Assembly: GCA_902782455.1 (NCBI GenBank)
Contig: CACZNA010000007.1
Location: forward strand, 3,865-67,864
Reading direction: 5' to 3'
Source of the DNA: an uncultured Bacteroidia bacterium
GTDB taxonomy: Bacteria; Bacteroidota; Bacteroidia; Bacteroidales; F082
Length of the DNA: 64,000 nt
Below the pieces are notes generated by a model. It ran no database searches. It had not been told where the DNA came from and worked only from the letters and a program-made list of their open reading frames with translations. Both the position numbers and the translations under genes were made by a program. Each line of letters starts with the position of its first letter. Positions within the stretch are counted from its first letter, which is position 1. Shown here in pieces: positions 3,276 to 57,280 of the stretch.

Positions 3276-3364
3276 TTGGCGGTTAGGAGGAAAAAAAGGG
3301 GCAAAATCGCCCGATTTTAATCCTAAAATCAACTGAATTTCTTTGCTGATTTCCGACAATTCAC

Positions 3365-3372
3365 TATATTTG
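3365..3372 (+). promoter_or_regulatory. Bacteroidota -7 promoter box TATATTTG upstream of the rhuM remnant
   Basis: Matches the TAnnTTTG consensus, 20 nt upstream of ATG 3392. Confidence 0.4.
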
Positions 3373-3391
3373 CATAAAACTACAAATTGGT

Positions 3392-3902: not shown

Positions 3903-3975
3903 AAACCAACCCCATCTCAACCCCAGCGCGTCGCCAAACGCATGGAATTGAGAGGGGCAGGCTTTGCTTTTCTCC

Positions 3976-4228
3976 CGCTTTGCGTCACTGCGAGGAACGA
4001 AGCAGTCCAAATAATTCGTTTCATTCGCCTAATTCGCCGTTTTATCGTTATCGGCGAATTGAGCGAATTTCGCGAATTGGATTGCATCACTTCGTTCGCA
4101 ATGACGCGAAGCGACCACAAAACTATAACAAAAATCCGCTGAAAAAACAAGATTTGAGCCAAGTACAGATTTTTCTTTTCAACTCATTTTGATAATCAAT
4201 GAGTTACGAGAAAAAAGTACAGATTTTT
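3976..4228. repeat. Mosaic intergenic cassette repeat, full copy (palindromic module + cgcaatgacgcgaagcg module + promoter-proximal module)
   Basis: About 90% identical to 6771-7026 along its length. Includes the imperfect 27-nt-arm palindrome aattcgtttcattcgcctaattcgccg / cggcgaattgagcgaatttcgcgaatt. Confidence 0.85.
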
Positions 4229-4229
4229 C

Positions 4230-4295
4230 TCAGTCCAAAAGCGCAAAAATCGGGTCAAAATCGGCCTTGTTATTGAGGTTGGAGCTGTATTTTCT
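4230..4295 (-). pseudogene. 3'-terminal remnant of a TPR/LuxR-type cassette regulator gene
   Basis: The minus-strand reading ..KYSSNLNNKADFDPIFALLD* parallels the C-terminus ..KYRSNLKNKADFDPISALVE* of the 7027-8685 gene. Homology stops about 15 bp before the stop codon of the adjacent HTH gene. Confidence 0.7.
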
Positions 4296-4310
4296 ACTAT
4301 GTTTTAGCGT

Positions 4311-4571
4311 TCAAACCTTTATCACATCTTCACCCAAAACCGTGGAGATTTTTGCCAATGTGCGAAGGGTGAAATTGTGCGTTCCTCCCACCCATCGCGA
4401 CACTTCTGGTTCGGTTTTGCCCATGAGGTGAGCAAATTCCTTTTGTGACAAACCTCTCGCTTTCAGTAGCGAATCAATCTTGTCGGCAATGGCCCACGAC
4501 ATGTCTACCTGCTTCTTCATCTCGGCAGGAATCTTGGCCAATTCTTTCTGAAACATGCTGCTTGCGCTCAT
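4311..4571 (-). CDS. XRE-family helix-turn-helix protein (HigA-like antitoxin candidate)
   Basis: LLKARGLSQKEFAHLMGKTEPEVSRWVGGTHNFTLRTLAKI is a classic XRE/Cro HTH. ATGA overlap with the upstream ORF. Confidence 0.75.
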   Translation of the reverse strand: MSASSMFQKELAKIPAEMKKQVDMSWAIADKIDSLLKARGLSQKEFAHLMGKTEPEVSRWVGGTHNFTLRTLAKISTVLGEDVIKV

Positions 4572-5053
4572 AACTCAAAATATTTGTTTTCGACACCAAC
4601 CAATTTTGTTTCTTTTATTTCGATTTCTCCAGCACGGATGTACGATTTTAACAAAGCATCAAATTTCTGTAAATCAATCACATAACCTTTCAGTTCTTCA
4701 CTTTCTTCGTAGGTTTTTGTTGTCTTCTCTCCACCATTCCCCAAAATCAATATCTTGTCTGTCAGTCTCAAACAATATAAGCGCAATTTGCTTTTCTCAA
4801 TGGGTAAGGCCACAACATTGTCATTCATTTTCCCTTCGGGGCGAAAATTTCTTTCTAATGCGCCATGTGAGGCTATCTTGTCAAGTGCAAGCAATATAAT
4901 CTGATAATCGCGCTGCAAAACAGCATTATCCTTGAATTTCTCCATAAACTTCTCAAATTCAGAGATTTCACTATTCTCAAAGATAATCGTGTAAAGACTG
5001 ACAAAATCTGTCTCATTCATAATGTCAAGTTTGGCCTGCTTCATATTAATCAT
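4568..5053 (-). CDS. Putative toxin partner (RelE/Gp49/HigB-like core motif, weak) of the XRE protein
   Basis: LRLYCLRLTDKILILGNGGEKTTKT resembles the Gp49/HigB-type core. Has a 4-bp overlap with the downstream HTH gene (toxin-first order). Start chosen at MINMKQ. The N-terminal ~90 aa are unassigned. Confidence 0.45.
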   Translation of the reverse strand: MINMKQAKLDIMNETDFVSLYTIIFENSEISEFEKFMEKFKDNAVLQRDYQIILLALDKIASHGALERNFRPEGKMNDNVVALPIEKSKLRLYCLRLTDKILILGNGGEKTTKTYEESEELKGYVIDLQKFDALLKSYIRAGEIEIKETKLVGVENKYFEL

Positions 5054-5198: not shown

Positions 5199-6737
5199 TT
5201 ATTCCTTAACCCACTTCCCCGTTTCCGCGAGGGTCGTTGAGCCTATTGTAACGCCTGTAGTATAAACCTTCCAAACATAAGCCCCCGAAGGCCAACTTTC
5301 GGCATTTATCGAAGTGACATTCTCCGTAATTTCTTTCTTACAAACCAGTTTCCCGGTCAAGTCATAGATTTCCACACGGGCGTTCTGCAAAGCCGTGCGA
5401 ATATTCAGCACATCCTTCCCTGGATTGGGATAAACCGTGGCCACAGCAAAGCCATGCGAATGTGCCTCCTCTATATTCCAAAAATCCTCAAGCGTGATTC
5501 TGTAGACACAATAGTCTGTCGGGCCAGAATCTTTGCCACGGAAACAGCTCAAAATGCAACCTCCTGCCGGACAAGCCGAAATGGTATTGGGAGCCAAACT
5601 TAAGTCGGGCTTGAAGTAAATCTCACTCTGCTTGTTCAAATCTTCGTCCATCAGCCCTACATAGACATTGTAAAATTCCTCGCTTTCCGTTTGCCCAATT
5701 CCTTTGAATAATGGCAAATCCATCCAACCAAGCATAAACACCTCACCATTAGGACTGAAACTCATCCCATAGCCTTCATCCTTACGATAGGGATTGATGA
5801 TGCCAAAAGTCCAATTCACAAGGTTAAAGTCCTCGTCGTAAGCAGTCATAATTACATTCGTTTTTTCATCCTGATATTCCCATGCGTCTTCACTGCCAAC
5901 CGAATAAGTACGACCGTTGTATGGATTGAATCGCATTGAGCAAACATCGTTGGAAATAGCGTATAACCATCCACTCATATTCTGGTTGGAATAGTGTACC
6001 CTACCCACAGAATCAGCGACAGAGATTGTGTTAAGGTCGGCATCAAGGGTGTAACAATCAAAGTCATACCTCTCATTCATCAAAATGAAGCGAAAACCCA
6101 AAGAATCAGGTGCCGAGAAGAAAAAGTTGGTCAAAGAGGCTTTATAGTCGCGAAACACCCTTTCCTTTATTATATTGCCCTCATTGTTAAACTTTACCAA
6201 GTGCATGGATTCTTTTTGGTCAATCATCCAAAGACTGTCAACGGGATATGACAAAGTCAGGCTACCGTCCTTTGAAAAAACGGGGTAAATCATATTCGTG
6301 TAAAACTGGGTTACTGGTGGATGGTTGAAGTCAGACCCGTCCCAATTATAACTTGTGTATGTCAGTGACAGGTCTTCTGGGGCAATATCAACGACACAAA
6401 GTAGGGGAAGCGTGTCGTTGTCGTCTAAGCGGAGCGAGACATAACGAAACTTACCATTCATGAAATTGGCATGTCGCCATAATTCCAGTCGATTATCGGG
6501 CAAACTGATGGAATCAAGGATTTCGCCCTCGTATGTGATTTTCATCAGTGCACGGCTTCCTGATTCGGTTGTTGCAAATGCAAGAAAAGCATTCGCGTCG
6601 ATACAATACACACTTGTAACCCGAACATAATCCGACCTGTATATTACTTCGAGGTCTTGAGGATACTCTTGCGCTTTCATCGTCACCCCTTCCGCCATTA
6701 GGAGCGCAAGCAGGGTGAAAAGTCTAATGTTTTTCAT
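5199..6737 (-). CDS. T9SS cargo protein of unknown function (paralog of 8779-10458)
   Basis: Signal peptide MKNIRLFTLLALLMAEGVTMKAQ. CTD VYPNPGKDVLNIRTALQNARVEIYDLTGKLV..GAYVWKVY..ETGKWVKE. Shares FNxEGNI and pre-CTD EEAH..G motifs with 8779-10458. Confidence 0.8.
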   Translation of the reverse strand: MKNIRLFTLLALLMAEGVTMKAQEYPQDLEVIYRSDYVRVTSVYCIDANAFLAFATTESGSRALMKITYEGEILDSISLPDNRLELWRHANFMNGKFRYVSLRLDDNDTLPLLCVVDIAPEDLSLTYTSYNWDGSDFNHPPVTQFYTNMIYPVFSKDGSLTLSYPVDSLWMIDQKESMHLVKFNNEGNIIKERVFRDYKASLTNFFFSAPDSLGFRFILMNERYDFDCYTLDADLNTISVADSVGRVHYSNQNMSGWLYAISNDVCSMRFNPYNGRTYSVGSEDAWEYQDEKTNVIMTAYDEDFNLVNWTFGIINPYRKDEGYGMSFSPNGEVFMLGWMDLPLFKGIGQTESEEFYNVYVGLMDEDLNKQSEIYFKPDLSLAPNTISACPAGGCILSCFRGKDSGPTDYCVYRITLEDFWNIEEAHSHGFAVATVYPNPGKDVLNIRTALQNARVEIYDLTGKLVCKKEITENVTSINAESWPSGAYVWKVYTTGVTIGSTTLAETGKWVKE

Positions 6738-6770
6738 TGTGTTTTAGTTTTGATGTTTTGCCATTCAGTT

Positions 6771-7026
6771 GCGCTTGTCGTCGCTGCGAGGAACGAAGCC
6801 GTCCAAATAATTCGTTTCATTCGCCTAATTCGCCGTTTTATCGTTATCGGCGAATTGAACGGATTTCGCGAATTGGATTGCTTCACTTCGTTCGCAATGA
6901 CGCGAAGCGACCACAAAACTATAACAAAAAAACCATCGAAAAAACAAGATTTGAGCCAAGTACAGATTTTTGTTTTCAACTCATTTTGATAATCAACGAG
7001 TCACGATAAAATAATACAATTTTTTC
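6771..7026. repeat. Mosaic intergenic cassette repeat, full copy
   Basis: Same module order as 3976-4228. Fills the whole spacer between the regulator stop (7027) and the cargo start (6737). Confidence 0.85.
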
Positions 7027-8685
7027 TCACTCGACAAGCGCAGAAATCGGGTCAAAATCGGCCTTGTTTTTGAGGTTTGAGCGGTATTTCGCCACGGTGT
7101 TTTCGCTCAGGCCGAGCAGGTCGGCCTCTTCCTTGATGCGGAAGCCCAGGAACGACAAAATGACGAGATGCGTTTCCGTCTTGTTGAGGTCGGGATAGGC
7201 CGATTTCATTTTCCCAATGCCTTGGGGATAGGCCGCCTCGAAAGCCTCGATGATGCGCTGCAAGCGGTCTTTCTGCCCCGATTGGTAAATCGCCAAAACT
7301 TGTTGGTTGAGCATCTCCTTCTGCTGGGTAGTGAGTTGCTCCAACTCAGTTTGCAGTTGACGTTGCGCCTCGCGGAGTTTCAGCGTTTCCAATTCCTTGT
7401 TCTTGCGGTAGCGCAATGCAGTCCAAAGCACTGCCATCAGCACGATGACCAACAGGGCTATCCACAAATAGAGGCGGTAACGTTTCAACTGCTGCTCGCT
7501 TTCCAAACGCTGGATTTCCAACTGCTTGTCGTATTCTTCCTTCACTTGCGCCACGGCTTTTTGCTCCGCACCATAGTCGGGGCTGGAACTCAGCAACTTA
7601 TCAGCATAAATGGCGGCATTGGCCTCGTCGCCCAAGGCTTTGTAGGAACCGTAAAGACGCTTGTATAAGAAGGTGAGGTCGCTACTCCTTTGAGTCATTT
7701 CCTCGGACATCAAACCATAATGAATGCAAGAATCGTATTGCTGCAAATCGAAATAGGCACGGCAAATGTTTTCTGTCAACTCATATTGATAACTTTTCGC
7801 CATTGGAGAATGGACAAAACGCAAGTCATCCAATCCCTTTTGGCTCTCCGCTATGCTCTGATGAAGCATATTCTTACCATCATCTTCTTTTTCAAAATGT
7901 TGTGTCTCAAAACAATAGAGATAGTAATCGGCTAATGCACTATGGAAATAAGAAGCCTCAACCGTGTCGCCGATGATTTCTGCGGAGTGAAGGCCGATTT
8001 GATAATACATCAGGCAACTGTCGTATTCGCCGAGAAGCAGATACGCCATCCCCAACGGAAAGGCTGTGATAAGCCGATTTCGATGATACTGTTTTTCAGC
8101 ATAATAGCCATCGGCAAGTTTCAAGTGATCGACACCTTCGCGATGGTATCCCGAGTTGGTGTAAGACATGCCAAGCCGCTGATGGATAGCATATTTCAGT
8201 CGGTCGATTTCGTTCTTTTCATCGGTGGGCTTGAGCGAAAAGCGCACAAAACGCTCGTCCACATGCTGGCATTGCTTGATGCTTTGCAAAGCCTTCAAAC
8301 GGTAGTCAAGCACATGTTGCTCACCCAAGTTTTTCACTTGGGCCATACGCGACAAAATCCAATAAGTCATGGATTCGAAATATTTGTCTTTTCCACCAAC
8401 AAATTGCTTTTCAGCTACTTGCATCAACGAATCGAAGTCATTGTATTTGCGAAGGCCATCATTCACCTTGGCCCGCAGCAGGCAATAATGCGCCCGTTCC
8501 TTCTCCGAAAGGGCTGAAACATTCAGCGTGTCAAGGATTTGCCTTGCGCTGTCGAGGTTGGTTTGGTAGAAACACTCCACGCGATAGAGCATGTCCTCCT
8601 CGGGCGGTGGAGGCGTTTCGCGCTTGGAGCAAGCAGCCACCAACACGACAAAAAGCAAAAGCCATATAAAAAACATGCGTTTCAT
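7027..8685 (-). CDS. Membrane-anchored one-component regulator: lipoprotein signal, TPR-like helical domain, single TM, coiled coil, C-terminal LuxR/GerE-type HTH
   Basis: Has the lipobox MKRMFFIWLLLFVVLVAAC|SK and the TM segment LYLWIALLVIVLMAVLWTALRY. The C-terminus PDLNKTETHLVILSFLGFRIKEEADLLGLSENTVAKYRSNLKNK is LuxR-like. A TACCTTTG box lies just upstream of the ATG. Confidence 0.65.
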   Translation of the reverse strand: MKRMFFIWLLLFVVLVAACSKRETPPPPEEDMLYRVECFYQTNLDSARQILDTLNVSALSEKERAHYCLLRAKVNDGLRKYNDFDSLMQVAEKQFVGGKDKYFESMTYWILSRMAQVKNLGEQHVLDYRLKALQSIKQCQHVDERFVRFSLKPTDEKNEIDRLKYAIHQRLGMSYTNSGYHREGVDHLKLADGYYAEKQYHRNRLITAFPLGMAYLLLGEYDSCLMYYQIGLHSAEIIGDTVEASYFHSALADYYLYCFETQHFEKEDDGKNMLHQSIAESQKGLDDLRFVHSPMAKSYQYELTENICRAYFDLQQYDSCIHYGLMSEEMTQRSSDLTFLYKRLYGSYKALGDEANAAIYADKLLSSSPDYGAEQKAVAQVKEEYDKQLEIQRLESEQQLKRYRLYLWIALLVIVLMAVLWTALRYRKNKELETLKLREAQRQLQTELEQLTTQQKEMLNQQVLAIYQSGQKDRLQRIIEAFEAAYPQGIGKMKSAYPDLNKTETHLVILSFLGFRIKEEADLLGLSENTVAKYRSNLKNKADFDPISALVE

Positions 8686-18518: not shown

Positions 18519-20330
18519 ATGGAAAATTTCGTCGTATCAGCAAGAAAATACAGGCCAATGACCTTCGACACCGTTGTGGGTCAAGGCTCCATCACCAACA
18601 CCTTGAAAAACGCCATCCGCAACAACACCTTGGCGCAAGCCTTCCTGTTTTGCGGGCCGCGCGGCGTGGGCAAGACCACTTGCGCGCGCATCATGGCCAA
18701 GACCATCAACTGCCTGAATCCCACCGAGAACATGGAGGCTTGCAACGAGTGCGAATCGTGCCGCGCCTTCAACAACAACGCCTCGTTCAACATCTATGAG
18801 CTTGACGCTGCATCAAATAACTCCGTCGAGGACATCCGCAGCTTGGTCGACCAAGTGAGGATTCCGCCACAAATCGGACAGTATAAGGTCTACATCATCG
18901 ACGAGGTTCACATGCTTTCTGCGGCGGCCTTCAATGCTTTCCTGAAAACCTTGGAAGAGCCGCCTGCGTATGCCAAATTCATCTTGGCCACGACGGAGAA
19001 ACACAAAATCATCCCTACCATCCTTTCACGCTGCCAAATCTTTGACTTCAAACGGATTACGGTGGATGACATTGCCAAACATTTGGCTTTTGTCGCCCAA
19101 AGCGAAGGCGTGAACGCCGAGCCTGAAGCCCTGAACATCATCGCGCAGAAAGCCGATGGTGCCTTGCGTGACGCGCTTTCCATTTTTGACCAAATGGTGA
19201 GTTTCAGCGGCAAGAACATCACCTACAAGGATGTCATTGACAACCTGAACGTTTTGGACTACGACTATTACTTCCAAATCGTTGACCACATCCTGCAAGG
19301 CAACACGAGCGACATCCTCTTGATTTTGAACGACATCATCAGCAAAGGATTTGAACCACAGCATTTTGTGAGCGGCATGGGCAACCATTTGAGAAGCCTT
19401 TTGGTATGCAAAGACGCGGTGACGGTGCAACTTTTAGAGGTCAGCGAACAATTGAGGCAAAAATATCTGGCCCAAGCACAGGCCTGTCCCCTGCCCTTCC
19501 TGATTAAAGCCTTGGAAATCAACAACCAATGCGACATCGACTACCGCGCCGCCAACAACAAACGGCTGCATTTGGAAATCGCATTAATGAAAATGTGCGC
19601 CTTGTGCAGCAGTGCCTTGACCATGCCGACGGCACAGGCGCAACCGGTGCAAATGCCACAAAACAGGCCAGCGCAACAACAATCTACATCTTTGACAGCG
19701 GGTCATGACCCGCTGCCGCTGCCAGCACAAGCAGCACAACAACAACCTACACCAGCTATGACAACGGGGCATGCCCCGTTGCCGCCAACCCACAATCCAA
19801 ATCCTATCCAAACAACAACAATTCAACAATCAACCGCTCCCGTTTCGACAGGCTCAACGTCCGCACAACCCGTAGTAAGGCCACGCGGCACCACCAGCGG
19901 CATCAGCATCAACAAGGCCATGCAGCAAGCCGAGCAAAAAGCCGAGGAAAAGGAGGAAACGTGGGACTCGCCCTTCACGCAAGAGCAACTGACGGCATCG
20001 TGGGCCGACTTTGTCAACCGTTACAAGAACATATCTCAAAGCTTTGCCGCCGCTATCGGGAAATACACACCTAAATTAATAGGCAGCTCCGAAATCCATT
20101 TCAGCGTGGACAACAAGCTCTTCGAGAGCAATACCGAAGGCATGGGAGCCTTGCGCAACCATCTGAAAAACAACCTCCACAACAACCAATTCATGCTCGT
20201 CCCCGAGTTGATGGAACGCCCCGCCGAAATCGAGGCCTACACCGACAAAGACAAGTTCGAAAAAATGGTGGAGGAACGGCCTTATTTGCGGACTTTGCAA
20301 ACGGAGTTAAAGTTGGAGGGAGATTTGTAA
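18519..20330 (+). CDS. dnaX: DNA polymerase III subunit gamma/tau
   Basis: YRPMTFDTVVGQ..FLFCGPRGVGKTTCARI (Walker A), a Cys4 zinc module (CNECESC), and YIIDEVHMLS. Has a Pro/Gln-rich linker. Confidence 0.95.
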   Translation: MENFVVSARKYRPMTFDTVVGQGSITNTLKNAIRNNTLAQAFLFCGPRGVGKTTCARIMAKTINCLNPTENMEACNECESCRAFNNNASFNIYELDAASNNSVEDIRSLVDQVRIPPQIGQYKVYIIDEVHMLSAAAFNAFLKTLEEPPAYAKFILATTEKHKIIPTILSRCQIFDFKRITVDDIAKHLAFVAQSEGVNAEPEALNIIAQKADGALRDALSIFDQMVSFSGKNITYKDVIDNLNVLDYDYYFQIVDHILQGNTSDILLILNDIISKGFEPQHFVSGMGNHLRSLLVCKDAVTVQLLEVSEQLRQKYLAQAQACPLPFLIKALEINNQCDIDYRAANNKRLHLEIALMKMCALCSSALTMPTAQAQPVQMPQNRPAQQQSTSLTAGHDPLPLPAQAAQQQPTPAMTTGHAPLPPTHNPNPIQTTTIQQSTAPVSTGSTSAQPVVRPRGTTSGISINKAMQQAEQKAEEKEETWDSPFTQEQLTASWADFVNRYKNISQSFAAAIGKYTPKLIGSSEIHFSVDNKLFESNTEGMGALRNHLKNNLHNNQFMLVPELMERPAEIEAYTDKDKFEKMVEERPYLRTLQTELKLEGDL

Positions 20331-20396
20331 ATGCGGAATGCGGAATGCAGAATGCGGAATGCAGAATTATGAATGCAGAATGCGGAATTAGGAATG
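20331..20396. repeat. Heptamer tandem repeat (ATGCGGA/ATGCAGA/ATTAKGA) x about 9.4
   Basis: Begins immediately after the dnaX stop codon: atgcgga atgcgga atgcaga atgcgga atgcaga attatga atgcaga atgcgga attagga atg. Confidence 0.9.
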
Positions 20397-20413
20397 TTAA
20401 ATCTTGAAATTAG

Positions 20414-20455
20414 AAATCTTTGAATTTTAAATCTTTGAATTTTAAATCTTTAAAT
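20414..20455. repeat. 15-mer tandem repeat AAATCTTTGAATTTT x2 plus terminal AAATCTTTAAAT
   Basis: Direct reading. The terminal 12-mer lies 9 nt upstream of the pepO-like ATG. Confidence 0.85.
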
Positions 20456-20464
20456 AATCAAATA

Positions 20465-22510
20465 ATGAAAAAAAGAAACGTTATCGCCATGATGATCTTG
20501 ACAACAGTGGCAACCGGCTGCGGTGAAAAGGCAGTCGAAACACAAGAACCCAAGAAAGAAGTCGTTCCAGCCATCGAATTGGGCAACATGGACACCAACA
20601 TCAATCCTGCGGACGACTTTTTCCGCTATTGCAACAACAACTGGATGAAGAACAATCCGATTCCGGAAGAGTATTCCACCTTCGGGGCCTTCACCGAAAT
20701 CGACCAGCGTAATGAAATCCTCATTCAGGAGATTATTGACGAAGTGTCGCAAGACGCCAATGCCGCCCAAGGCAGCGTGGCACAGAAAATCCGCGACTTC
20801 TACAACGCTGGTATGGACAGCGTGGCCATCAACGAGCGCGGTTACAGCGAGTTGAAGCCTTATTTCGAGATGATCGACAACCTGAACGACAAGGCACAAT
20901 TGGCCGTGCTGATGGGCAAGTTCCACAGCGACGGCATTGGAGGTTTCTTTGGAGCAGGCGGCAGTCCCGACCCCAAGAATGCCGAAATGGTCATCATGCA
21001 CCTCTACCAAGGCGGGCTGAGCCTCACCGACCGCGACGACTACCTGAAGGAAGAGACGCAAGAAATGCGCGACAAGTATGTGGAGCACGTCGCCAAGATG
21101 TTTGAACTCACCGGCACTGCCCCCGATGCCGCTACCGACAAAGCCAAGCGCATCCTCGCCCTCGAAACCGAGATGGCCAAAAACTCGATGAGCCGCGTTG
21201 AACGCCGCGACCCCGACAAAACCTACAACATGAGGACTTTGGTCGAATTGCAGAAATCCACGCCCAACTTCGATTGGAACACCTATTTCAAGAATGCCGG
21301 CGCCCCGACGATCGAAAGCCTCAACGTGGGTATGCCCGACTACATTGCCGCTTTGGGCAAAATCATCAGCAAAACCGACCTCGAAACCCTCAAGGACTAC
21401 TTGCGCTGGAAGGTCATCCACGGCAGCGCTTCCATGCTGAGCAGCGACTTAGACAACGAGAACTTCAACTTCTACGGCAACTACCTTTATGGCCAGGAAG
21501 TGCAGCAACCCCGTTGGCGCCGCGTGCTTGACGCAACCTCCGGCTGCTTGGGTGAGGCCGTCGGCCAACTCTATGTGGAGAAGCACTTCCCCGCCGAGGC
21601 CAAAGCCAGAATGTTGGAACTCGTCGGCAACCTGCGCGTGGCCTTGGGCGAGCGCATCAAGAACCTTGAATGGATGAGCGAAGACACCAAAGCCAAAGCC
21701 CTTGTCAAACTCGACGCCTTCAATGTGAAAATCGGCTATCCCGACAAGTGGAAGGATTACAGCAAGTATGAAGTCACCCCGGAGTCGTATTTCGAGAATG
21801 TACACCGCGCCATCCGCTTTGAAAATGAGAGAGACATGGCCAAAATCGGCAAGCCCGTCGACAAGGACGAATGGTTCATGACGCCTCAAACCGTCAACGC
21901 CTACTACAGCCCCGAGATGAACGAAATCGTGTTCCCCGCCGCCATCCTGCAACCGCCTTTCTTCAATATGGATGCTGACGATGCCATCAACTACGGCGGC
22001 ATTGGCGTGGTGATTGGCCACGAAATGACCCACGGCTTCGACGACCAAGGCTGCAAGTACGACGAAAAAGGCAACCTCAACAACTGGTGGACCGAGGAAG
22101 ATTCCAAGAAATTCAACGAGCGCACTGCCCAATTGGCCAAGTTGTTCGACGAATTCCAAGTGCGTGGCTACCAAATCAATGGCCAGCTGACCCTTGGCGA
22201 GAACATCGCCGACCTCGGTGGCCTGAATGTGGCCTGGGACGCCTACCAAATGACCGACGAGGCCAAGGCCAACCAGAACATCGACGGCTTCACGCCCGCC
22301 CAGCGTTTCTTCATCAGCTATGGCACCATCTGGCGCAACAACTCCCGCGGCAAGTACCTTGAGCGCCAAGTTGTCACCGACGTACACTCGCCCGCCGAAG
22401 CCCGCGTCAACCGCACCCTCGGCTCGATGCCACACTTCTATGAGGCTTTCGAGATTCTGCCTGAAAACAAGATGTATATCGCTCCGGAGGAACGCGCTGC
22501 GATTTGGTAA
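20465..22510 (+). CDS. pepO: M13 family zinc metallopeptidase (PepO / endothelin-converting-enzyme-like), lipoprotein
   Basis: Start at MKKRNVIAMMILTTVATGC (lipobox). VIGHEMTHGFD (HExxH) and GENIADLGG motifs. Confidence 0.9.
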   Translation: MKKRNVIAMMILTTVATGCGEKAVETQEPKKEVVPAIELGNMDTNINPADDFFRYCNNNWMKNNPIPEEYSTFGAFTEIDQRNEILIQEIIDEVSQDANAAQGSVAQKIRDFYNAGMDSVAINERGYSELKPYFEMIDNLNDKAQLAVLMGKFHSDGIGGFFGAGGSPDPKNAEMVIMHLYQGGLSLTDRDDYLKEETQEMRDKYVEHVAKMFELTGTAPDAATDKAKRILALETEMAKNSMSRVERRDPDKTYNMRTLVELQKSTPNFDWNTYFKNAGAPTIESLNVGMPDYIAALGKIISKTDLETLKDYLRWKVIHGSASMLSSDLDNENFNFYGNYLYGQEVQQPRWRRVLDATSGCLGEAVGQLYVEKHFPAEAKARMLELVGNLRVALGERIKNLEWMSEDTKAKALVKLDAFNVKIGYPDKWKDYSKYEVTPESYFENVHRAIRFENERDMAKIGKPVDKDEWFMTPQTVNAYYSPEMNEIVFPAAILQPPFFNMDADDAINYGGIGVVIGHEMTHGFDDQGCKYDEKGNLNNWWTEEDSKKFNERTAQLAKLFDEFQVRGYQINGQLTLGENIADLGGLNVAWDAYQMTDEAKANQNIDGFTPAQRFFISYGTIWRNNSRGKYLERQVVTDVHSPAEARVNRTLGSMPHFYEAFEILPENKMYIAPEERAAIW

Positions 22511-22590: not shown

Positions 22591-22600
22591 TGGATTCATC

Positions 22601-22783
22601 GGCAGGGGTTCACACCGGCAGGGGTTTACACCGCCTGCCTAACATCCTTTCACCCCTATGGGGTTCCTCCGCACCCCTGACCAAGTCACGGAGTGACGCA
22701 GGATAGTAGGCAGGGGTGAAATGAAATGCAACCCCTGCCGATAATAATCATAACCCCTGCCGGCAAAAAAACAAACCCCTGCC
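22601..22783. repeat. Cluster of GGCAGGGGT motifs: three direct then three inverted (ACCCCTGCC)
   Basis: GGCAGGGGT at 22601, 22617 and 22709. ACCCCTGCC at 22731, 22753 and 22775. Also ACCCCTATGGGGT at 22652. Confidence 0.85.
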
Positions 22784-22861
22784 AAAACACGGCTGCCGCA
22801 TTGCGACAGCCCTACAACCCCGAACCTGTAAGACTGTCACACCATGTCAGCCGCACACCCC

Positions 22862-43795: not shown

Positions 43796-44350
43796 TTACT
43801 TCATTGAAAGAGTTATGTCTTGCAATGCGCAAACAATATTATTCTTTTTGCTAATCAATTGAAGAACATCTTCTTCTTCCACTGATTTATTTTCAATCGC
43901 TTTGTTATAACAATTTGCTAAACACTTACAGAAATCAAATATTTCTTCGGCAACTCCCGACTCCTTATTCAGATTGAATAAAGATAATCTTGAAGAATAA
44001 AATGTATCAACATATAAAAGTGCTGAAGACAATAACTTTTCAGTACAAACATCGTTTTCATTAGTAATAATCCTAGAAAAAGCATCTATTTCACTCTTCC
44101 TAAACTGCATTAGCATCATGTTTTTCTGATACTCCAATTCTTTTCTTGAACGCATTTCATCTTTTTCAGAAACAGCTTTCGTCAATTTCACAAAAACATA
44201 AACATTAATTGCCGTGAGAATTGGCATCATTATTCCATTAAAAATGGTACTGAATTCAATCCATGAATGATTTACGTTGATAGCCAATAAACACAAAATC
44301 ATCATCAAAATAACGAATGCACCCACTATTATTGAAAGGTTCTTCTTCAT
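43796..44350 (-). CDS. Small membrane protein (two N-terminal TM helices + helical cytoplasmic domain), unknown function; partner of 44361-45623
   Basis: LSIIVGAFVILMMILCLLAI and IMMPILTAINVYVFVKL. About 28-30% GC. 10 bp downstream of the T5orf172-like gene and 12 bp upstream of nnr. Confidence 0.6.
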   Translation of the reverse strand: MKKNLSIIVGAFVILMMILCLLAINVNHSWIEFSTIFNGIMMPILTAINVYVFVKLTKAVSEKDEMRSRKELEYQKNMMLMQFRKSEIDAFSRIITNENDVCTEKLLSSALLYVDTFYSSRLSLFNLNKESGVAEEIFDFCKCLANCYNKAIENKSVEEEDVLQLISKKNNIVCALQDITLSMK

Positions 44351-44360
44351 ATCATTTCTT

Positions 44361-45623
44361 TTATGATAGTGTTTTTACAACATTTAATATATCCTTTTCA
44401 TCCAAAGCAAACCATTCCCCTCTTAATCTCTTCTCTCCATAAGCCTTATGTAATGCAGCTTCTATCGCTTCAGCAATAATCCTCGTTGGATATTCTTTGG
44501 CACATAAAAGAACAATGGTTGGTTTTTCACTTTGTAAAGTCCTTTCTCTGTATTCAGGCTTATTTGAAATACCAATTTTATAATAACCATTGGATTCATC
44601 CTTCATTAGATATACATAGCATGATGATTCTTTAGTCTCATTTATATATTCCTTAGTACTTTCATCTTGATATTCATTCTTAAAAACAGCAGGATCAATT
44701 TGAGCACCACATTCAGCCAAAGCTTTTATATATTTTTGAAAATAGAGCTTAAATGTTAATGAAGCAAAGTCGTTTTCTCTTTTTAAATCAATTGGAGCAT
44801 CACCATTTTGAAAATCGCATCTAATTGCAACCAAATTCTCTGAAGCAAATACTTGAATATCCTGAGGCAACATTGAAAAACTCACCTGCTTATAATATGA
44901 ATTACTTGTATTAGATGCTGCTTTTTTTAGTTGATATTCTAAATGTCTATTATTTTCAAAAACAAAATGAAGCGCATCTCCCTTTACAAATTTATGTTGT
45001 GAGAACTCTTTCTTATCAAACTGAAAAACAAATTGCTCTTTTGTATTATCAAGTCGAACGAATGGAAAAGAATAATAATTAGTAGGCTTATCAAAAGGAG
45101 AATATCTTAATTGAAAGGCATCTCTATTATATAACAAATCATTATGCCCACAGCCATGACTCCATACAATCTTTTTATCTCCTTTGAACACATCATCAAT
45201 AATATCATAATTGCAATAATGCTCAATAAATACATTTGCCATTTCTTCAACGCTATCCATTTTTCGGCAGAATACAATATCATCATACAAACGAATTACC
45301 GAAATTTTCGTGTCCAAAATTTTAGTTTCAGAAAAATCATAATATGCTGAGACTGGAATCGTCAAATCAATTTTATATTTTATTCTTGCCAAAGAATACT
45401 TATCAATTGATTTACAGAAAACAAGAGAACCTACTACATCTCCATTTTGGAGTTGATAATAAAAGCCCTGTTGATCATTCATCAAGCCACTTTTATCATA
45501 TCGTATATAGAAATCATCAAAATCATCTACTTGATTTTTAATATCTTCAATTTCTTTACGTTGCGATTCTGAAATAAAATCTCTCAGATAATATTCTTTC
45601 ATTTTTCCTCCTAGCTTTTTCAT
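44361..45623 (-). CDS. Unknown ~330-aa N-terminal region fused to a C-terminal T5orf172/MUG113 (GIY-YIG superfamily) domain
   Basis: The C-terminal CYVYLMKDESNGYYKIGISNKPEYRERTLQSEKP..AIEAALHKAYGEKRLRGEWFALDEKD fits the T5orf172 pattern. Low GC. I recognise no motif in residues 1-330. Confidence 0.7.
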   Translation of the reverse strand: MKKLGGKMKEYYLRDFISESQRKEIEDIKNQVDDFDDFYIRYDKSGLMNDQQGFYYQLQNGDVVGSLVFCKSIDKYSLARIKYKIDLTIPVSAYYDFSETKILDTKISVIRLYDDIVFCRKMDSVEEMANVFIEHYCNYDIIDDVFKGDKKIVWSHGCGHNDLLYNRDAFQLRYSPFDKPTNYYSFPFVRLDNTKEQFVFQFDKKEFSQHKFVKGDALHFVFENNRHLEYQLKKAASNTSNSYYKQVSFSMLPQDIQVFASENLVAIRCDFQNGDAPIDLKRENDFASLTFKLYFQKYIKALAECGAQIDPAVFKNEYQDESTKEYINETKESSCYVYLMKDESNGYYKIGISNKPEYRERTLQSEKPTIVLLCAKEYPTRIIAEAIEAALHKAYGEKRLRGEWFALDEKDILNVVKTLS

Positions 45624-45732
45624 TTAATATTTATGAGAAACAATCCCTTTCAACTCTCTTTAACTAATTGTTCTTCCGATTCATAAAAGACTCCGTGTAT
45701 TATCGACAAGATTTATCTCTCTTGACTTTGCG

Positions 45733-45765
45733 CAAAATTACAAATAAAATCGGGATAAAAGCAAA
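45733..45765 (-). promoter_or_regulatory. Candidate Bacteroidota promoter (TTTG - 21 nt - TAATTTTG) for the low-GC two-gene operon
   Basis: Minus-strand TTTG at 45765-45762 and TAATTTTG at 45740-45733, about 110 nt upstream of ATG 45623. Confidence 0.4.
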
Positions 45766-45780
45766 ACATTCATCGATAGG

Positions 45781-45947
45781 TTGGAAAAAAGTTGCAAAAA
45801 GGGGGTTGAAACAGTGTTCTTCAGCGGAGGCAAAACGATGAACATGTTGGAAAAAAGTTGCAAAAAGGGGGTTGAAACAGTGGAAAAAAGTTGTAATTTT
45901 GCATCGAAAATAGTGGAAAAAATTTGCAAAAAAGCACTGAAACACAG
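45781..45947. repeat. Iteron-like block: two perfect 36-bp repeats separated by 30 bp, then two degenerate ~33-bp units in direct tandem
   Basis: ttggaaaaaagttgcaaaaagggggttgaaacagtg occurs at 45781-45816 and 45847-45882. It is followed by ggaaaaaagttgtaattttgcatcgaaaatagtg and gaaaaaatttgcaaaaaagcactgaaacacag. Confidence 0.85.
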
Positions 45948-46016
45948 AAATATTGCCGCTGGCACAGAAATTGTGATTATCTTTGCAGCGTAAAACAGAT
46001 TAAAGGAGAAAGGATT

Positions 46017-47573: not shown

Positions 47574-48437
47574 TCAGTTCTTTTCGTTGATTTGTTTTTG
47601 TTCGTCTTCTTTTGCTGCTTTCAGTTTCATGGCCTCTTTCGCGTTCAGCGAAGTCACCACGGGCTTCCCCGTTTTGGTTTCCAACTCCATGCGGGCGTGG
47701 CGGGCAATCTCGCCGCCTTGACGTGCCACATCCATGTGCTCGCCAAAAGTTTCGGGGTTTTGGCTTTCTGAAATATCCTTGGTGGAGAGTTCAGCCAGCA
47801 TGTTCAACACCAGTTCGCGGTTAGTCATGTTGTCGCGCAGGTTTTCTTTCTTCAAACCTTTGAATTGCTTGTATTCCTTGGCAGTCATGCCTGACCATGT
47901 GCTGTAAATGATGTCCGTCAAAGTCGCGAATTGAACTCCTTCCTGCAAACCACGTTTCTTCCATTCATCCGTCAAGTCCTTTCGGATTTCGATCGACTTC
48001 AGCCGCTGGTTAATCCAAGCATCGGAATAACCCAAACGCTTGTAGTCCATCATAGCCTGCTCAATGCTCAGTTCAGGGTCTTGCATTTGGTCAAGTCGTT
48101 GTGCTGCCACTTGCGCCATCCATTGCTTGAAAGGTTCAGCCTTGGGGGATGGAATGGATTGGATAAGACGAAGAAGTTGCTCTGTATCAGCGACATCCGT
48201 CTTGTATCTCTTACCATCAGAAGACTGCATTTTCAGTTGGTTACAATTTGTAACCGACTCGTTTCCTTCCTTTATCAATCTGTGTTTCAGAACTTTCCAA
48301 TAGTTACGAGGATTGGAACTTTCGGTTAATACCGCAATTACATCCACTATGGAAAAATACCATTTCTCTGCCTCGTCGTCCCAAAGGGCGCGAACTTTCT
48401 TTTCCTCGAAAAGCTGTATTTTATTGTGCTGGGTCAT
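47574..48437 (-). CDS. Bro-N domain / DNA-damage-inducible protein D (DinD)-like protein
   Basis: IQLFEEKKVRALWDDEAEKWYFSIVDVIAVLTES.NPRNYW is Bro-N-like. The helical C-terminal part matches the DinD layout. Start at MTQHNK. Confidence 0.65.
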   Translation of the reverse strand: MTQHNKIQLFEEKKVRALWDDEAEKWYFSIVDVIAVLTESSNPRNYWKVLKHRLIKEGNESVTNCNQLKMQSSDGKRYKTDVADTEQLLRLIQSIPSPKAEPFKQWMAQVAAQRLDQMQDPELSIEQAMMDYKRLGYSDAWINQRLKSIEIRKDLTDEWKKRGLQEGVQFATLTDIIYSTWSGMTAKEYKQFKGLKKENLRDNMTNRELVLNMLAELSTKDISESQNPETFGEHMDVARQGGEIARHARMELETKTGKPVVTSLNAKEAMKLKAAKEDEQKQINEKN

Positions 48438-48472: not shown

Positions 48473-49675
48473 TCAATACAAAAACCCGAACAGCCAAAGC
48501 GGAATCTTGTTGCCGCGGCCAAACTCAACGCCGTCGATGGCCAAAAAACTGTCCGGAAGGTCTTTGATTTGCTCGAAACGCTTGTCGGCACCGCCCACTT
48601 CGAAGGTGTATTTCCCGTCAACGAGGAAATCGCCTTGCTTCGGCGCGTTGAGTTCGTGATTGTGACAGGTCTGGTTGTAGAAATAAGTCTCCCTCACCGC
48701 CCCGATGGCCGGATTGGGATTGAAAGCGTACATCAAGTTGGTGTTGTCCAAAAACAACTTTTCCGGCGACGACATCTGCTTGAAGGCCTTGACGCGGGTC
48801 TTCAACTGCCCCAACAAAGCGCCTCTTTCCAACAAGTCCAGCAACTTCAAGCCCTGCTCGCGGCTGGTTTCAAGTTGGCGGTAAAGTTCTTCCATCTTCG
48901 GCACAAACGGCACTTGCAAAGCAATGATACCCAGCAACTTCTTCAACTTCTGAATCGTTATGTATTCCACTTTGTCCACAGCCGGCATATCCAATTCGAT
49001 GGTCTGCTGCGCCACTTCCATCAGTTTGGCGTGGAAGCCCTCCAAGTCCTCCTTGTAAAACGGATAGTAGCCGTGACGACAATAGCGCTCAAAATGCGGC
49101 AAAATGCGCACATTCTCGGCTATTTCCGAGGCAATCTGCACATGGCGGGTCAAAATGTCGTCCAATGACAGTTTTTCGTGATGCAGAATGTCCTCAAACA
49201 TCAGATATTCACGAAACGAGAGGCCGTTCATCGTGTGCATAGCCACGCGGCGCGACAGGTCGCCTTCGCCTTTGGTCAATTTCAGCATCGAACTGCCCGT
49301 AAACACCACATTCATCGTCGGATAGTCGTCGTAAATGTTCTTGATGTAGGTCTGCCAATGCTCGTATTTGTGTACCTCGTCAAGAAAAAGGTGGGTACCT
49401 CCGTGCGTGTAATGGTATTCCACCAAATCGGCGAGGGTGTTGTTGGCAAACCACATATTGTCCAACGACACATACAGCACCTTGCTCTCGTCTGTAAAGG
49501 CCTCCTTGATGCGTTGCTTCAGCAGCGTCGATTTCCCCACGCCTTTCGGCCCTTTGATGCCGATGATGCGGGCGTTCCAGTTGATGCTGTGCAGCAGTTC
49601 CCTTTGGAATTTCATACTTACCTGCTGCACACTTCGCTTTGAGTTTCTGTAGAGTATGTCCGGGCTTTCATTCAT
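48473..49675 (-). CDS. AAA+ ATPase with C-terminal DUF4143-like domain
   Basis: IIGIKGPKGVGKSTLL (Walker A), LFLDEVHKY (Walker B). Start at MNESPD. A TATCTTTG box lies at 49708-49701 on the minus strand. Confidence 0.75.
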   Translation of the reverse strand: MNESPDILYRNSKRSVQQVSMKFQRELLHSINWNARIIGIKGPKGVGKSTLLKQRIKEAFTDESKVLYVSLDNMWFANNTLADLVEYHYTHGGTHLFLDEVHKYEHWQTYIKNIYDDYPTMNVVFTGSSMLKLTKGEGDLSRRVAMHTMNGLSFREYLMFEDILHHEKLSLDDILTRHVQIASEIAENVRILPHFERYCRHGYYPFYKEDLEGFHAKLMEVAQQTIELDMPAVDKVEYITIQKLKKLLGIIALQVPFVPKMEELYRQLETSREQGLKLLDLLERGALLGQLKTRVKAFKQMSSPEKLFLDNTNLMYAFNPNPAIGAVRETYFYNQTCHNHELNAPKQGDFLVDGKYTFEVGGADKRFEQIKDLPDSFLAIDGVEFGRGNKIPLWLFGFLY

Positions 49676-49713
49676 AATTCCCTCCTTTGTTTTGACGCCG
49701 CAAAGATACAAAA

Positions 49714-49890
49714 CAATATTTAAATATTGAAATTTTTGAAGAAAAAAATATCTAAATATTGAAAATTAAAGAAAAATCACTATTGAATTATTGATATATC
49801 TGCATATATTCAATATTTAAATATGTAAAATTCTCAGAAAAACAATATTTCAATATTGATATTTTTATTTGAAAACAATATTCAAATATG
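49714..49890. promoter_or_regulatory. Array of six phased 16-bp palindromes (consensus CAATATTTAAATATTG) in a divergent promoter region
   Basis: Site starts are 49714 (perfect), 49746, 49778, 49811, 49843 and 49876. Spacings are 32, 32, 33, 32 and 33 bp. Confidence 0.8.
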
Positions 49891-49928
49891 GAAATGCAAA
49901 AACACGCCTTATTTTGCAAAGAAAACCG

Positions 49929-49936
49929 TATTTTTG
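49929..49936 (+). promoter_or_regulatory. -7 promoter box TATTTTTG upstream of tex
   Basis: TAnnTTTG match 21 nt upstream of ATG 49957. Confidence 0.45.
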
Positions 49937-49956
49937 CGCTTCAAAACTTGAAAAAT

Positions 49957-52095
49957 ATGCCTAACACCATAGACTTCGCCCCGCAAATCGCGCAGGAACT
50001 CAACTTGGCCGCGCACCATGTGGCCAATGTCATTCGCCTTTTCGACGAAGGCGCAACCATCCCTTTCATCGCCCGCTACCGCAAGGAAATGACAGGCACA
50101 ATGAACGAGGAAAACGTGGCCGCCGTGCAAAAACGCCTCGAACAACTCGTTGAATTACAGAAACGTAAGGAAAGCGTCATCGCATCCATCCGCGAACAGG
50201 AGAAACTCACGCCCGAATTGGAGCAGAAGATACTGAACGCCAAGACCTTGCAGGAAGTTGAGGATTTGTATCTCCCCTACAAGCCTAAACGCCGCACCCG
50301 CGCCGCCATCGCCCGCGAAAAGGGTTTGGAGCCACTGGCCGCACAAATCATGGCGCAAAATGTGGATATGGTGGATCGCCTCGCAGCGCGTTACGTCAAT
50401 GCGGGCAAAGGCGTGAACGACGTGGAGGAAGCCCTGCAAGGGGCGAAAGACATCATGGCCGAGTGGGTTTCAGAGAACATCAACGGGCGCAACCGCATCC
50501 GCAAGATTTTCCATTTGCAGGGCGACATCAGTTCCGCCGTGGTGAAAGGCAAGGAAGAAGAAGGCAAGACCTACCAACAATATTTCGACTTCCGCGAGCC
50601 GATTTCGCAGGCACCATCGCATAGGCTTTTGGCCTTGTTCCGCGCCGAAGATGAGGGTATGGTGAAACTGAAAATCAAGGTGGATGACGATTTTGTGCTC
50701 AATTCGTTGGAGAGCATTTTCCTGAAAAACGACAACGAATCTTCCGAACTCGTGCGCGAGGCCATCGCCGACTCGTGGAAACGCCTTTTGGAGCCGAGCA
50801 TCGAGACCGAAATCCGCAATTATTATAAGGAGAAGGCCGACGAAACCGCCATCCGCGTTTTTGCCGAGAACTTGAAACAACTCCTTTTGGCCGCCCCGAT
50901 GGGCCAAAAGCGCGTCCTTGCCATCGACCCGGGCTTCCGCACGGGCTGCAAGGTGGTGGTCTTGAGCGAAACGGGCGCATTGTTGCACAACGAAACCATC
51001 TATCCCCATCCGCCCAAGTCGGACACAGTAGGCGCGATGCGCAAAATCAAGGCATTAGTGGATGCCTATAGAATCAAGGTGATTGCCATCGGCAACGGCA
51101 CGGCAGGACGCGAGACCGAGGACTTTATCCGCTCCATCAAGTTCGACCGCGACCTGATGGCCGTGATGGTGAGCGAGAGCGGCGCGTCGGTGTATTCCGC
51201 CTCAAAAATCGCCCGCGACGAGTTCCCCGACTACGACATCACCGTGCGCGGCGCGGTCAGCATCGGTCGCCGACTGATGGACCCTTTGGCCGAGTTGGTG
51301 AAAATCGACCCGAAGAGTATCGGCGTGGGACAATACCAGCACGATGTCGATCAAAAGAAACTCGGTGAGAGCCTCGACCAAACCGTGGAAAGTTGTGTGA
51401 ACGCCGTAGGCGTGGAACTGAACACGGCCAGCCAGCGACTGCTGTCATACGTCAGCGGCGTCGGCCCAAGTTTGGCCTCCAACATCATCCAATACCGCGA
51501 GGAAAAAGGCGGTTTCAAGAACCGCAAACAACTCAAGGAAGTGCCGCGCCTCGGCGACAAGGCCTTCGAGCAATGCGCGGGCTTTTTGCGCATCCATAAC
51601 GGTGAAAATCCACTTGACCAAAGTGCCGTCCACCCGGAAAGTTATCACATCGTGGAAAAGATGGCCAAATCGCTGAACGTGAAGGTGAAAGACCTCATCG
51701 GCAACAAGGAACTCATCGCGAAAATCAAGCCGGAGAATTTCGTTGAAAAGGACTTCGGCTTGGAGACCATCAACGACATTTTGACCGAATTGGACAAGCC
51801 CGGTCGCGACCCAAGAAAGACTTTTGAAGCCTTTGAGTTCGACAAGAACATCCGCGAGGTCAAGGACTTGCGTGCTGGAATGACCTTGAACGGCATCGTG
51901 ACCAACATCACCGCTTTTGGCGCGTTTGTCGATATAGGCGTTCACCAAGACGGCCTCGTCCACATCAGCCAAATGGCCGATCGTTACATCAAAGACCCGA
52001 ATGAGGTGGTGCATCTGAACCAAAAAGTGAAAGTAAAGGTTTTGGAGGTCGATGCGAACAGAAACAGGATTAGTTTGACGATGAAATTGCAATAA
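49957..52095 (+). CDS. tex: Tex-family transcription accessory protein (S1 RNA-binding)
   Basis: FIARYRKE.TG N-terminal motif, a YqgF/RuvC-like segment (LAIDPGFRTGCKV), HhH, and a C-terminal S1 domain (GIVTNITAFGAFVDIGVHQDGLVHISQ). Confidence 0.92.
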   Translation: MPNTIDFAPQIAQELNLAAHHVANVIRLFDEGATIPFIARYRKEMTGTMNEENVAAVQKRLEQLVELQKRKESVIASIREQEKLTPELEQKILNAKTLQEVEDLYLPYKPKRRTRAAIAREKGLEPLAAQIMAQNVDMVDRLAARYVNAGKGVNDVEEALQGAKDIMAEWVSENINGRNRIRKIFHLQGDISSAVVKGKEEEGKTYQQYFDFREPISQAPSHRLLALFRAEDEGMVKLKIKVDDDFVLNSLESIFLKNDNESSELVREAIADSWKRLLEPSIETEIRNYYKEKADETAIRVFAENLKQLLLAAPMGQKRVLAIDPGFRTGCKVVVLSETGALLHNETIYPHPPKSDTVGAMRKIKALVDAYRIKVIAIGNGTAGRETEDFIRSIKFDRDLMAVMVSESGASVYSASKIARDEFPDYDITVRGAVSIGRRLMDPLAELVKIDPKSIGVGQYQHDVDQKKLGESLDQTVESCVNAVGVELNTASQRLLSYVSGVGPSLASNIIQYREEKGGFKNRKQLKEVPRLGDKAFEQCAGFLRIHNGENPLDQSAVHPESYHIVEKMAKSLNVKVKDLIGNKELIAKIKPENFVEKDFGLETINDILTELDKPGRDPRKTFEAFEFDKNIREVKDLRAGMTLNGIVTNITAFGAFVDIGVHQDGLVHISQMADRYIKDPNEVVHLNQKVKVKVLEVDANRNRISLTMKLQ

Positions 52096-57163: not shown

Positions 57164-57235
57164 GGACTGCGGGACTGCGGGACTGCGAGACTGTGGGAAT
57201 GCGGGGCTGTAGGACTGCGGGGCTGTAGGACTGCG
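57164..57235. repeat. Octamer tandem repeat (GGACTGCG and variants) x9
   Basis: ggactgcg ggactgcg ggactgcg agactgtg ggaatgcg gggctgta ggactgcg gggctgta ggactgcg. Confidence 0.9.
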
Positions 57236-57248
57236 AGTCGAACAAATA

Positions 57249-57280
57249 CCCGAAGTCACGTGTCCCGAAGTCCCGAAGTC
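57249..57280. repeat. CCCGAAGTC short repeat x3
   Basis: cccgaagtc acgtgt cccgaagt cccgaagtc. Confidence 0.8.

Follow-up and report, generated by a model that had tools for sequence, protein, structure and literature searches.

A phased array of palindromes in front of an AAA_14 ATPase gene of Bacteroidales and its probable role as an autoregulatory operator

The stretch of DNA studied here, called the window, comprises 64,000 nucleotides of contig CACZNA010000007.1 from an uncultured bacterium of the Bacteroidales. Between a minus-strand gene for an AAA_14 P-loop ATPase and the plus-strand gene tex it contains a row of short palindromes, which is the subject of this work (Table 1). A reading made from the letters alone (the sequence-only reading) had described six 16-bp palindromes at this place and had proposed that they serve for the cooperative binding of a dimeric DNA-binding protein. 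The six sites were found again by a mismatch search: there are six matches to CAATATTTAAATATTG with 0–3 mismatches at 49714–49891, all within the intergenic region 49676–49956, and their start-to-start distances are 32, 32, 33, 32 and 33 bp, exactly as described. The site at 49714 is indeed a perfect palindrome with 0 mismatches, and it lies just upstream of the −7 box of the ATPase gene, leaving a gap of 5 nt to TATCTTTG, with the dyad centre ~13 bp from the first base of that box. At the other end, the distance to the tex box, given earlier as ~40 bp, measures 38 bp beyond site 6. The abundance at random spacing that the sequence-only reading had considered as the contrary case is not found within the 64-kb window, where no further match to CAATATTTAAATATTG at ≤3 mismatches occurs anywhere else. 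In dinucleotide-preserving shuffles 0.39 matches are expected, and none of 100 shuffles attains six. Tandem Repeats Finder describes the array as a 65-bp period in 2.9 copies, i.e., two sites per higher-order unit.

Table 1. Features of the palindrome array and of the adjoining genes (window coordinates).
Feature	Position	Strand	Remarks
Bro-N domain gene	47574–48437	−	36 nt downstream of the ATPase gene
AAA_14 P-loop ATPase gene, 400 aa, with predicted winged helix and PD-(D/E)XK-like C-terminus	48473–49675	−	proposed binder of the array
Predicted winged helix-turn-helix, codons 238–309	48749–48964	−	AlphaFold model
Ser271 codon	48863–48865	−	within the predicted winged-helix segment
ATPase −7 box TATCTTTG, Bacteroidota type	49701–49708	−	5 nt from site 1
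Six-site array of 16-bp dyad-symmetric sites	49714–49891	−	32–33 bp apart; site 1 promoter-proximal in the ATPase orientation
Site 1 CAATATTTAAATATTG	49714–49729		perfect palindrome, 0 mismatches; promoter-proximal
Site 2 AAATATCTAAATATTG	49746–49761		2 mismatches
Site 3 CACTATTGAATTATTG	49778–49793		3 mismatches; most degenerate
Site 4 CAATATTTAAATATGT	49811–49826		2 mismatches
Site 5 CAATATTTCAATATTG	49843–49858		1 mismatch
Site 6 CAATATTCAAATATGG	49876–49891		2 mismatches; distal; missing from variants without tex as upstream neighbour
tex −7 box TATTTTTG	49929–49936	+	neighbour, outside the system

The layout of the array is conserved across the ATPase family. For this comparison, 80 genome loci with homologues at 44–100% identity were collected (designated by L numbers where they must be told apart), 76 of which were used for site calling. 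Autocorrelation over positions −220 to −20 of 75 loci gave an isolated peak at lags of 32 and 33, with 336 and 534 matching windows, respectively, against ~1 in control windows from the same loci, and the best lag was 32 or 33 in 56 of the 75. A chain caller found at least two sites 31–34 bp apart in 71 of the 76 loci (two sites in 31 loci, three in 28, four in 6, five in 3 and six in 3), and nine sites were obtained for L092 by another count. Lack of conservation in orthologous regions, which had been named, jointly with mutations having no effect, as an outcome that would speak against an operator array, is thus not the case. The centre-to-centre spacing was 31 bp in five instances, 32 bp in 49, 33 bp in 77 and 34 bp in one, with a mean of 32.56 bp. 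This mean is ~1 bp above three turns of 10.5 bp, which corresponds to a rotation of ~36 degrees between successive sites and is unexplained. Most of the sites are dyad-symmetric over 16–22 bp, with a T-tract/A-tract centre. Most homologues have a TAnnTTTG box after the proximal site, and in 51 of 67 loci the distance from the proximal dyad centre to the first base of this −7 box is 12–18 bp (mode 13), so that the site falls between the −33 and −7 promoter elements of the Bacteroidota type.

The same layout is carried by cultured organisms, namely Segatella copri (HDE06, KUA49_RS17505), Parabacteroides distasonis (UNS60_RS09790), Runella slithyformis and Persicobacter psychrovividus, all of them in plasmid-labelled records; in Aliarcobacter the layout is ambiguous. 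Close homologues of the Bacteroidota-type ATPase also appear on contigs binned to Lachnospiraceae, Treponema, Gastranaerophilales, Verrucomicrobia, Limiplasma and Kiritimatiellae (L030, L039, L044, L045, L066, L078 and L081), which reflects either horizontal transfer or binning errors. Two more distant cases were noted. One locus (L020) has a canonical AAA_14+DUF4143 gene at 5711–6988 with three copies of GCATTTTATCGGATTTC spaced ~32 bp apart at 6990–7120 (minus strand), ending at a TACCTTTG box, and from this single canonical case the phased-array layout may extend to the wider AAA_14/DUF4143 superfamily. In the other (L041), the promoter of a DUF234-type ATPase (open reading frame from ~7069, plus strand) bears inverted repeats, TTTTCAGCGGAAA/TTTCCGCTGAAAA.

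Besides the conserved spacing, the sequence of the sites is specific to each clade, with examples such as CAATATTnnAATATTG, CAATCTTCCAAGATTG, TTTACATTTTAAAATGTAAA, TCACTTTTGGAAAAGTGA, TTTCTTTGCAAAGAAA and TTTGTTGTTTnnAAACAACAAA. A GC-rich version, three copies of TCCCTCATTGAGGGA at exactly 33 bp, is present in cultured Segatella copri, and therefore the AT-richness of the region does not account for the pattern. Even paralogues within one genome carry different palindromes, as in RUG12531 (L037 and L058) and in RGIG7921 (L088 and L095), which makes a host factor shared by all of them unlikely as the binder. Selection on the sites was assessed by aligning ten orthologous arrays of close relatives. 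Their identity is 92% in the palindrome arms, 77% in the spacers and 72% in the central 2 nt, and variable columns make up 24 of 81 in the sites as compared with 36 of 66 in the spacers (Fisher p = 0.0025). One variant is short of exactly one 33-bp unit, so the copy number shifts by whole units.

The array belongs to the minus-strand ATPase gene and not to tex. The ATPase of the window is 100% identical to that of L023. The identical 400-aa protein is also found on metagenome contigs whose upstream neighbours differ, these being tex, a gene for a TPR protein, another gene, or tex together with an inserted ATPase_2/DUF234 gene, and the palindromes stand in front of the ATPase gene in every one of these contexts. 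Homology between the contexts stops at the distal edge of the array. Homologues at 80%, 69% and 61% identity, located in unlike chromosomal contexts, still have two like sites directly before the TAnnTTTG box. The array and the gene form a lone unit that is found between unrelated housekeeping genes in different genomes, and control of tex would be at most incidental, because the array travels with the ATPase. The insertion in the close relative L003 (314–1746) places the ATPase_2/DUF234 gene between the tex −7 box and tex, and this gene has a palindrome, TTTACAAATTTGTAAA, in its own upstream region.

The sequence-only reading had labelled the product of the minus-strand gene a DUF4143 ATPase. 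The ATPase part of this label holds, since AAA_14 (PF13173) is matched at E = 1.6e-29 and 102.9 bits against a cut-off of 27; it is the only Pfam domain in the protein, and the Pfam DUF4143 domain (PF13635) is not matched even at E ≤ 1. Homology to proteins that combine AAA_14 and DUF4143 is nevertheless apparent, as hhalign aligns columns 8–318 to a canonical protein of this kind with a probability of 98.6%. Some relatives match DUF4143 below its 28.1-bit cut-off, with E values of 3e-4 (L101), 0.024 (L139) and 0.12 (L090). By sequence comparison, then, the window protein is a divergent relative of the AAA_14/DUF4143 ATPases (COG1373). Seven PADLOC models of the candidate PDC-S01 also match it, the best with E = 3.4e-23 over residues 20–334, in a library that has no curated cut-off. 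DUF4143 is a PD-(D/E)XK family of unassigned function (PMC3424549). PDC-S01, described as an ATPase fused to a PD-(D/E)XK domain, occurs in very large numbers, above all in rumen genomes, and lacks experimental validation (PMC12988326, PMC13356809). It is a defence candidate by genomic context only (PMC12988326). Relatives of the window ATPase in this candidate group are reported to rank fourth among the defence candidates across prokaryotes (PMC12988326) and to be the most frequent single defence-candidate locus of rumen genomes, 6,530 of which gave 10,358 hits (PMC13356809).

The Walker A and B residues G42, G47, K48 and D99 are invariant among 120 diverse family members, and E329, D349, E359, K365 and D381 are conserved in 88–96% of them. 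The C-terminal motif reads E-V-G-G-x-x-K and not (D/E)-x-K as in PD-(D/E)XK. When these 120 diverse homologues were used for the alignment, AlphaFold (AF2) gave a model with a pLDDT (predicted local distance difference test) of 95.0 and a pTM (predicted template modelling score) of 0.92; with 34 close homologues the pLDDT was only 43.6. The model predicts a P-loop core (35–160), a helical lid (171–234), a canonical winged helix (helices 238–253, 261–268 and 272–284; wing strands 288–292 and 306–309) and an alpha/beta C-terminal domain (312–400). The nearest solved folds are the archaeal AAA+ protein SSO1545 (2fna, template modelling score, TM, ~0.5), subunits of the origin recognition complex (ORC), RuvB, RFC, Apaf-1, Avs4/Avs5 and DnaA. 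This full-length search was dominated by the AAA+ part, and the C-terminal domain was thus left without a match of its own; a sequence search of the PDB detected no homologue.

The connection between the predicted winged helix and the DNA sites was examined by comparing 14 loci with CAATATT half-sites and 10 loci with CAATCTT half-sites. Residue 271, the N-cap position of the recognition helix (motif LE-T-[S/N]-REQG), is Ser in all of the former and Asn in all of the latter. Among ~400 columns of the alignment it is the only one with disjoint residue sets, with a mutual information of 0.99 bit, the next column having 0.72. The two states interleave on a neighbour-joining tree with at least four independent switches, one of which separates proteins of 88% identity (L163, Ser with ATATT; L026, Asn with ATCTT). 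The rule was also applied prospectively: three proteins with Asn271 were picked before their DNA was retrieved, and all three show CAATCTT/AAGATTG sites. Other recognition-helix motifs accompany other site types.

No flanking gene of the array is conserved, as the commonest cluster among 793 flanking open reading frames occurs in only 6 of the 76 loci. This, together with the improbability of a shared host factor, makes the ATPase the obvious candidate for binding the array. The sequence-only reading had noticed no cognate binder gene next to the array; no conserved partner gene is found in the flanks, and the ATPase itself, through its internal winged helix, is most likely the protein that binds. 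Therefore, we think that the array is probably a cooperative autoregulatory operator array, placed in front of the gene of the same ATPase whose winged helix would read it. The earlier proposal of a cooperative array for a dimeric protein, of repressor type at the ATPase promoter, is in this sense supported by the conserved phased layout, the higher conservation of arms than of spacers, the abutment to the −7 box and the co-variation of residue 271.

In the mechanism that we propose, two winged helices would read the two arms of each 16–20-bp palindrome, and residue 271, where the recognition helix begins, would read the fourth base from the dyad. Sites ~32.6 bp apart, about three turns, would align the dimers along almost one face of the helix, and contact between neighbouring dimers would make binding cooperative. 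Occupancy of the proximal site between −33 and −7 would block RNA polymerase, and the array probably acts by repression. The ATPase gene would thereby be auto-repressed in a switch-like manner, as here would probably be the downstream Bro-N and HAD genes. A site sequence private to each clade or paralogue would prevent cross-regulation among the many paralogues of one genome.

Several observations weigh against this reading or narrow it. In the STAND NTPases the equivalent winged helix is structural and does not bind DNA. A proximal site between −33 and −7 would also fit an activator of the MerR type. Some sites are only partly palindromic, with a mean arm complementarity of 0.67. Residue 271 is not the sole determinant of the site, because L057, which has the TSREQG motif, departs from the rule with a different site type. 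A global test of the Mantel type gave a rho of 0.28 between site and recognition helix, 0.29 between site and the rest of the protein, and a partial value of 0.13 (p = 0.01); it fails to tell the helix apart from the remainder of the protein, and reliance is placed instead on the targeted test of residue 271. The reverse question, whether such an array implies an ATPase, was addressed by scanning metagenomes for a two-site pattern. The scan returned 80 loci, mostly irrelevant (NAATATTG)n microsatellites of period 8, so that as a test it is weak, because the pattern also fits microsatellites. Seven of the 80 have an ATPase homologue and 32–33-bp arrays, six of them with the array in front of that gene; the remaining loci were judged by eye and include a few two-copy repeats without an ATPase match, e.g., L170 with a spacing of 32 bp. 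In the seventh, L139, a three-site CCATATTnnAATATTG array with 32-bp spacing (2987–3070) has no cognate ATPase behind it, being located downstream of an ATPase gene of another site type (1537–2745) and before a gene for an AraC-type regulator (3157–4836); it may be orphaned.

Other explanations of the array deserve consideration, and two of them could each coexist with autoregulation. Up to six to nine sites are present where one or two would suffice for repression, which is in favour of an assembly platform, on which the AAA+ protein would form a DNA-bound filament or ring stack at the ~32.6-bp register, holding or priming a latent nuclease until a trigger such as phage infection releases or activates it; autoregulation would then be a by-product. 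Such a role would agree with a spacing that is strictly kept while the sequence is free to vary, with the conservation of Walker A/B and of the nuclease-like E329, D349, E359 and K365 in 88–100% of the 120 members, with the matches of the ATPase to PDC-S01 and of its neighbour to PDC-S13, and with the oligomeric action of the structural neighbours Avs4/Avs5 and ORC. However, most homologues have only two or three sites, oligomerization on DNA, nuclease activity and a defence phenotype remain conjecture here, and PDC-S01 itself lacks experimental validation (PMC12988326), so that we hold this role to be unlikely. We would tentatively entertain, as a speculation, a picture of autonomous modules, each with a private DNA address, in which an AAA+ filament at the ~32.6-bp register silences the gene and at the same time stores a latent nuclease that a phage-type trigger would release, with helix and sites co-evolving fast for insulation between paralogues; the nuclease might also be guided to foreign DNA by this same sequence-specific head. 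The array could also be a cis site for the mobility or maintenance of a selfish one-gene cassette, resembling an iteron, a terminal repeat or a homing site on which the ATPase-nuclease acts. The lone unit of gene and array among unrelated housekeeping genes, the end of homology at the distal array edge, the union of predicted sequence-specific binding with a nuclease-like domain, and the presence of some copies beside recombinase or integrase genes on plasmid records are all compatible with it. We find it quite improbable, as the far end of the gene carries neither another array nor an inverted copy, no target-site duplication or empty site was identified, and the palindromes abut the promoter as operators would. 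Moreover, DnaA boxes are at chance level in the window (16 found, 14 expected) with none inside the array, the cumulative GC skew is monotonic without a turn, and matches were 0 in a scan of viral contigs and a single weak one, at 38%, in a phage genome collection.

Binding of the sites by an unlinked host regulator or nucleoid-associated protein, with the ATPase gene merely as its target, would fit the earlier remark that no separate small DNA-binding gene is nearby, as expected for a factor acting in trans. It is contradicted by the data, since the sites differ among paralogues of one genome and among close relatives, change in parallel with ATPase residue 271, and do not occur elsewhere in the 64-kb window, and we give it very little credit. 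The data also contradict the idea of a non-functional AT-rich tandem repeat or low-complexity DNA, which we can hardly believe: the region is AT-rich and the two-site pattern does match many period-8 microsatellites in metagenomes, but the layout persists across homologues of 44–100% protein identity despite changing site sequences, conservation is higher in the arms than in the spacers, GC-rich versions exist, and residue and base co-vary. The partition-centromere, nucleoid-protein and phage-operator alternatives that the sequence-only reading had listed are likewise not supported. A partition centromere (parC/parS) was rejected because the ATPase belongs to AAA_14 and not to ParA/ParM and there is no conserved second gene, and plasmid iterons or a replication origin because the repeats are dyad-symmetric, several array-bearing paralogues occur per chromosome, and the DnaA-box count and GC skew given above are negative. 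The class of CRISPR arrays needs repeats of 23–50 bp, spacers of similar length and cas genes, whereas here the repeats have 16 bp and the spacers 16–17 bp; the only Rfam CRISPR match is CRISPR-DR63 (E 3.6, 20.5 bits as compared with a gathering score of 37), and the Pfam scan showed no cas genes. An RNA element was discarded as well, as an Rfam scan of 49000–50500 at E ≤ 10 gave chance-level matches only; since it lies upstream of the −7 box, the array is not transcribed with the ATPase gene. When the array was folded as a single strand, z was −2.3 and the centroid had almost no structure, which makes no strong case for a cruciform or hairpin. A scan for sigma-70 promoters and terminators stayed at background level, with a model that is not applicable to Bacteroidota promoters.

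If the array is an autoregulatory operator, it shares features with several known systems. The canonical AAA_14/DUF4143 proteins (COG1373, PDC-S01) have apparently the same domain order of ATPase, helical region, winged helix and PD-(D/E)XK-like C-terminus and, unlike the window protein, reach the Pfam DUF4143 model. Archaeal Orc1/Cdc6 proteins are likewise built from an AAA+ core and a lid, with a DNA-reading winged helix at the C-terminus, and their origin boxes are repeated dyad sites beside the gene of the binder. The best structural matches include ORC subunits, with a modest similarity (TM 0.25–0.5). In contrast to Orc1/Cdc6, the present system is found on a bacterial chromosome and comes in several paralogues per genome; a nuclease-like domain is added to the protein, and the sites abut a promoter. 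A duplex-unwinding element and a turn of the GC skew are both absent, and DnaA boxes do not exceed chance. MalT (a STAND protein), NtrC-type regulators and DnaA also combine a P-loop or AAA+ ATPase with a DNA-binding domain and assemble cooperatively, in a nucleotide-dependent manner, on phased sites, and DnaA and NtrC are autoregulated. The present ATPase differs from them in its family, in its predicted internal DNA-binding domain, in its C-terminal nuclease-like domain, in the strict spacing of 32–33 bp and in having sites private to each clade or paralogue instead of one conserved box. In toxin-antitoxin and partition operons, e.g., parC of plasmid R1, phased repeats also lie over the promoter of the binder's operon, autorepression is cooperative and tight, and specificity diverges between related systems. 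Those operons are set apart from the present single-gene unit, which has neither a small ribbon-helix-helix or helix-turn-helix binder gene nor an ATPase of the ParA/ParM type, and most copies of which are chromosomal.

Regarding the neighbouring genes, the Bro-N gene is probably co-transcribed with the ATPase gene. Its product matches the PADLOC candidate PDC-S13 (E = 1.4e-137), and it is an accessory insertion that is not present in some variants, e.g., L004. A gene for a HAD hydrolase comes after it. To the right of the array, tex (49957–52095) is followed by two Peptidase_C10 genes. Other features of the window were noted in passing. A low-GC island at 43796–46000 (30–31% as compared with ~48% elsewhere) contains a T5orf172/MUG113-domain gene (44361–45623, minus strand) and a 184-aa open reading frame without a Pfam match (43796–44350, minus strand), and was probably acquired horizontally. 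The short tandem repeat TAATTCGCC is present in three copies at each of 1459–1485, 4012–4038 and 6808–6834, which suggests a dispersed intergenic element. Further repeats are AATGCGG in 9.6 copies followed by four copies of AATTTTAAATCTTTA at 20330–20470, nine copies of GGACTGCG followed by four of CCCGAAGT at 57164–57280, just past the second Peptidase_C10 gene, and, at 22600–22787, CGGCAGGGGTTCACAC (two copies) and 22-bp repeats containing AACCCCTGCCG, ~100 bp apart, which are complementary G/C-rich motifs between two genes.

Autoregulatory operator arrays are themselves known. In the literature found on DUF4143, COG1373, AAA_14 and PDC-S01 there is no functional study and no mention of upstream repeats, and as far as this literature was searched an operator array for the AAA_14 candidate defence ATPases is undescribed. 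The array would add a concrete property to the abundant family related to PDC-S01, namely, an apparent sequence-specific binding of phased palindromes before its own genes, in which a single residue, 271, predicts one base of the site. There is also a practical side, as expression may be altered when genes of this family are cloned for defence assays and their native arrays are left behind. In our opinion, the family would also offer a naturally occurring series of orthogonal repressor/operator pairs for use in Bacteroidota.

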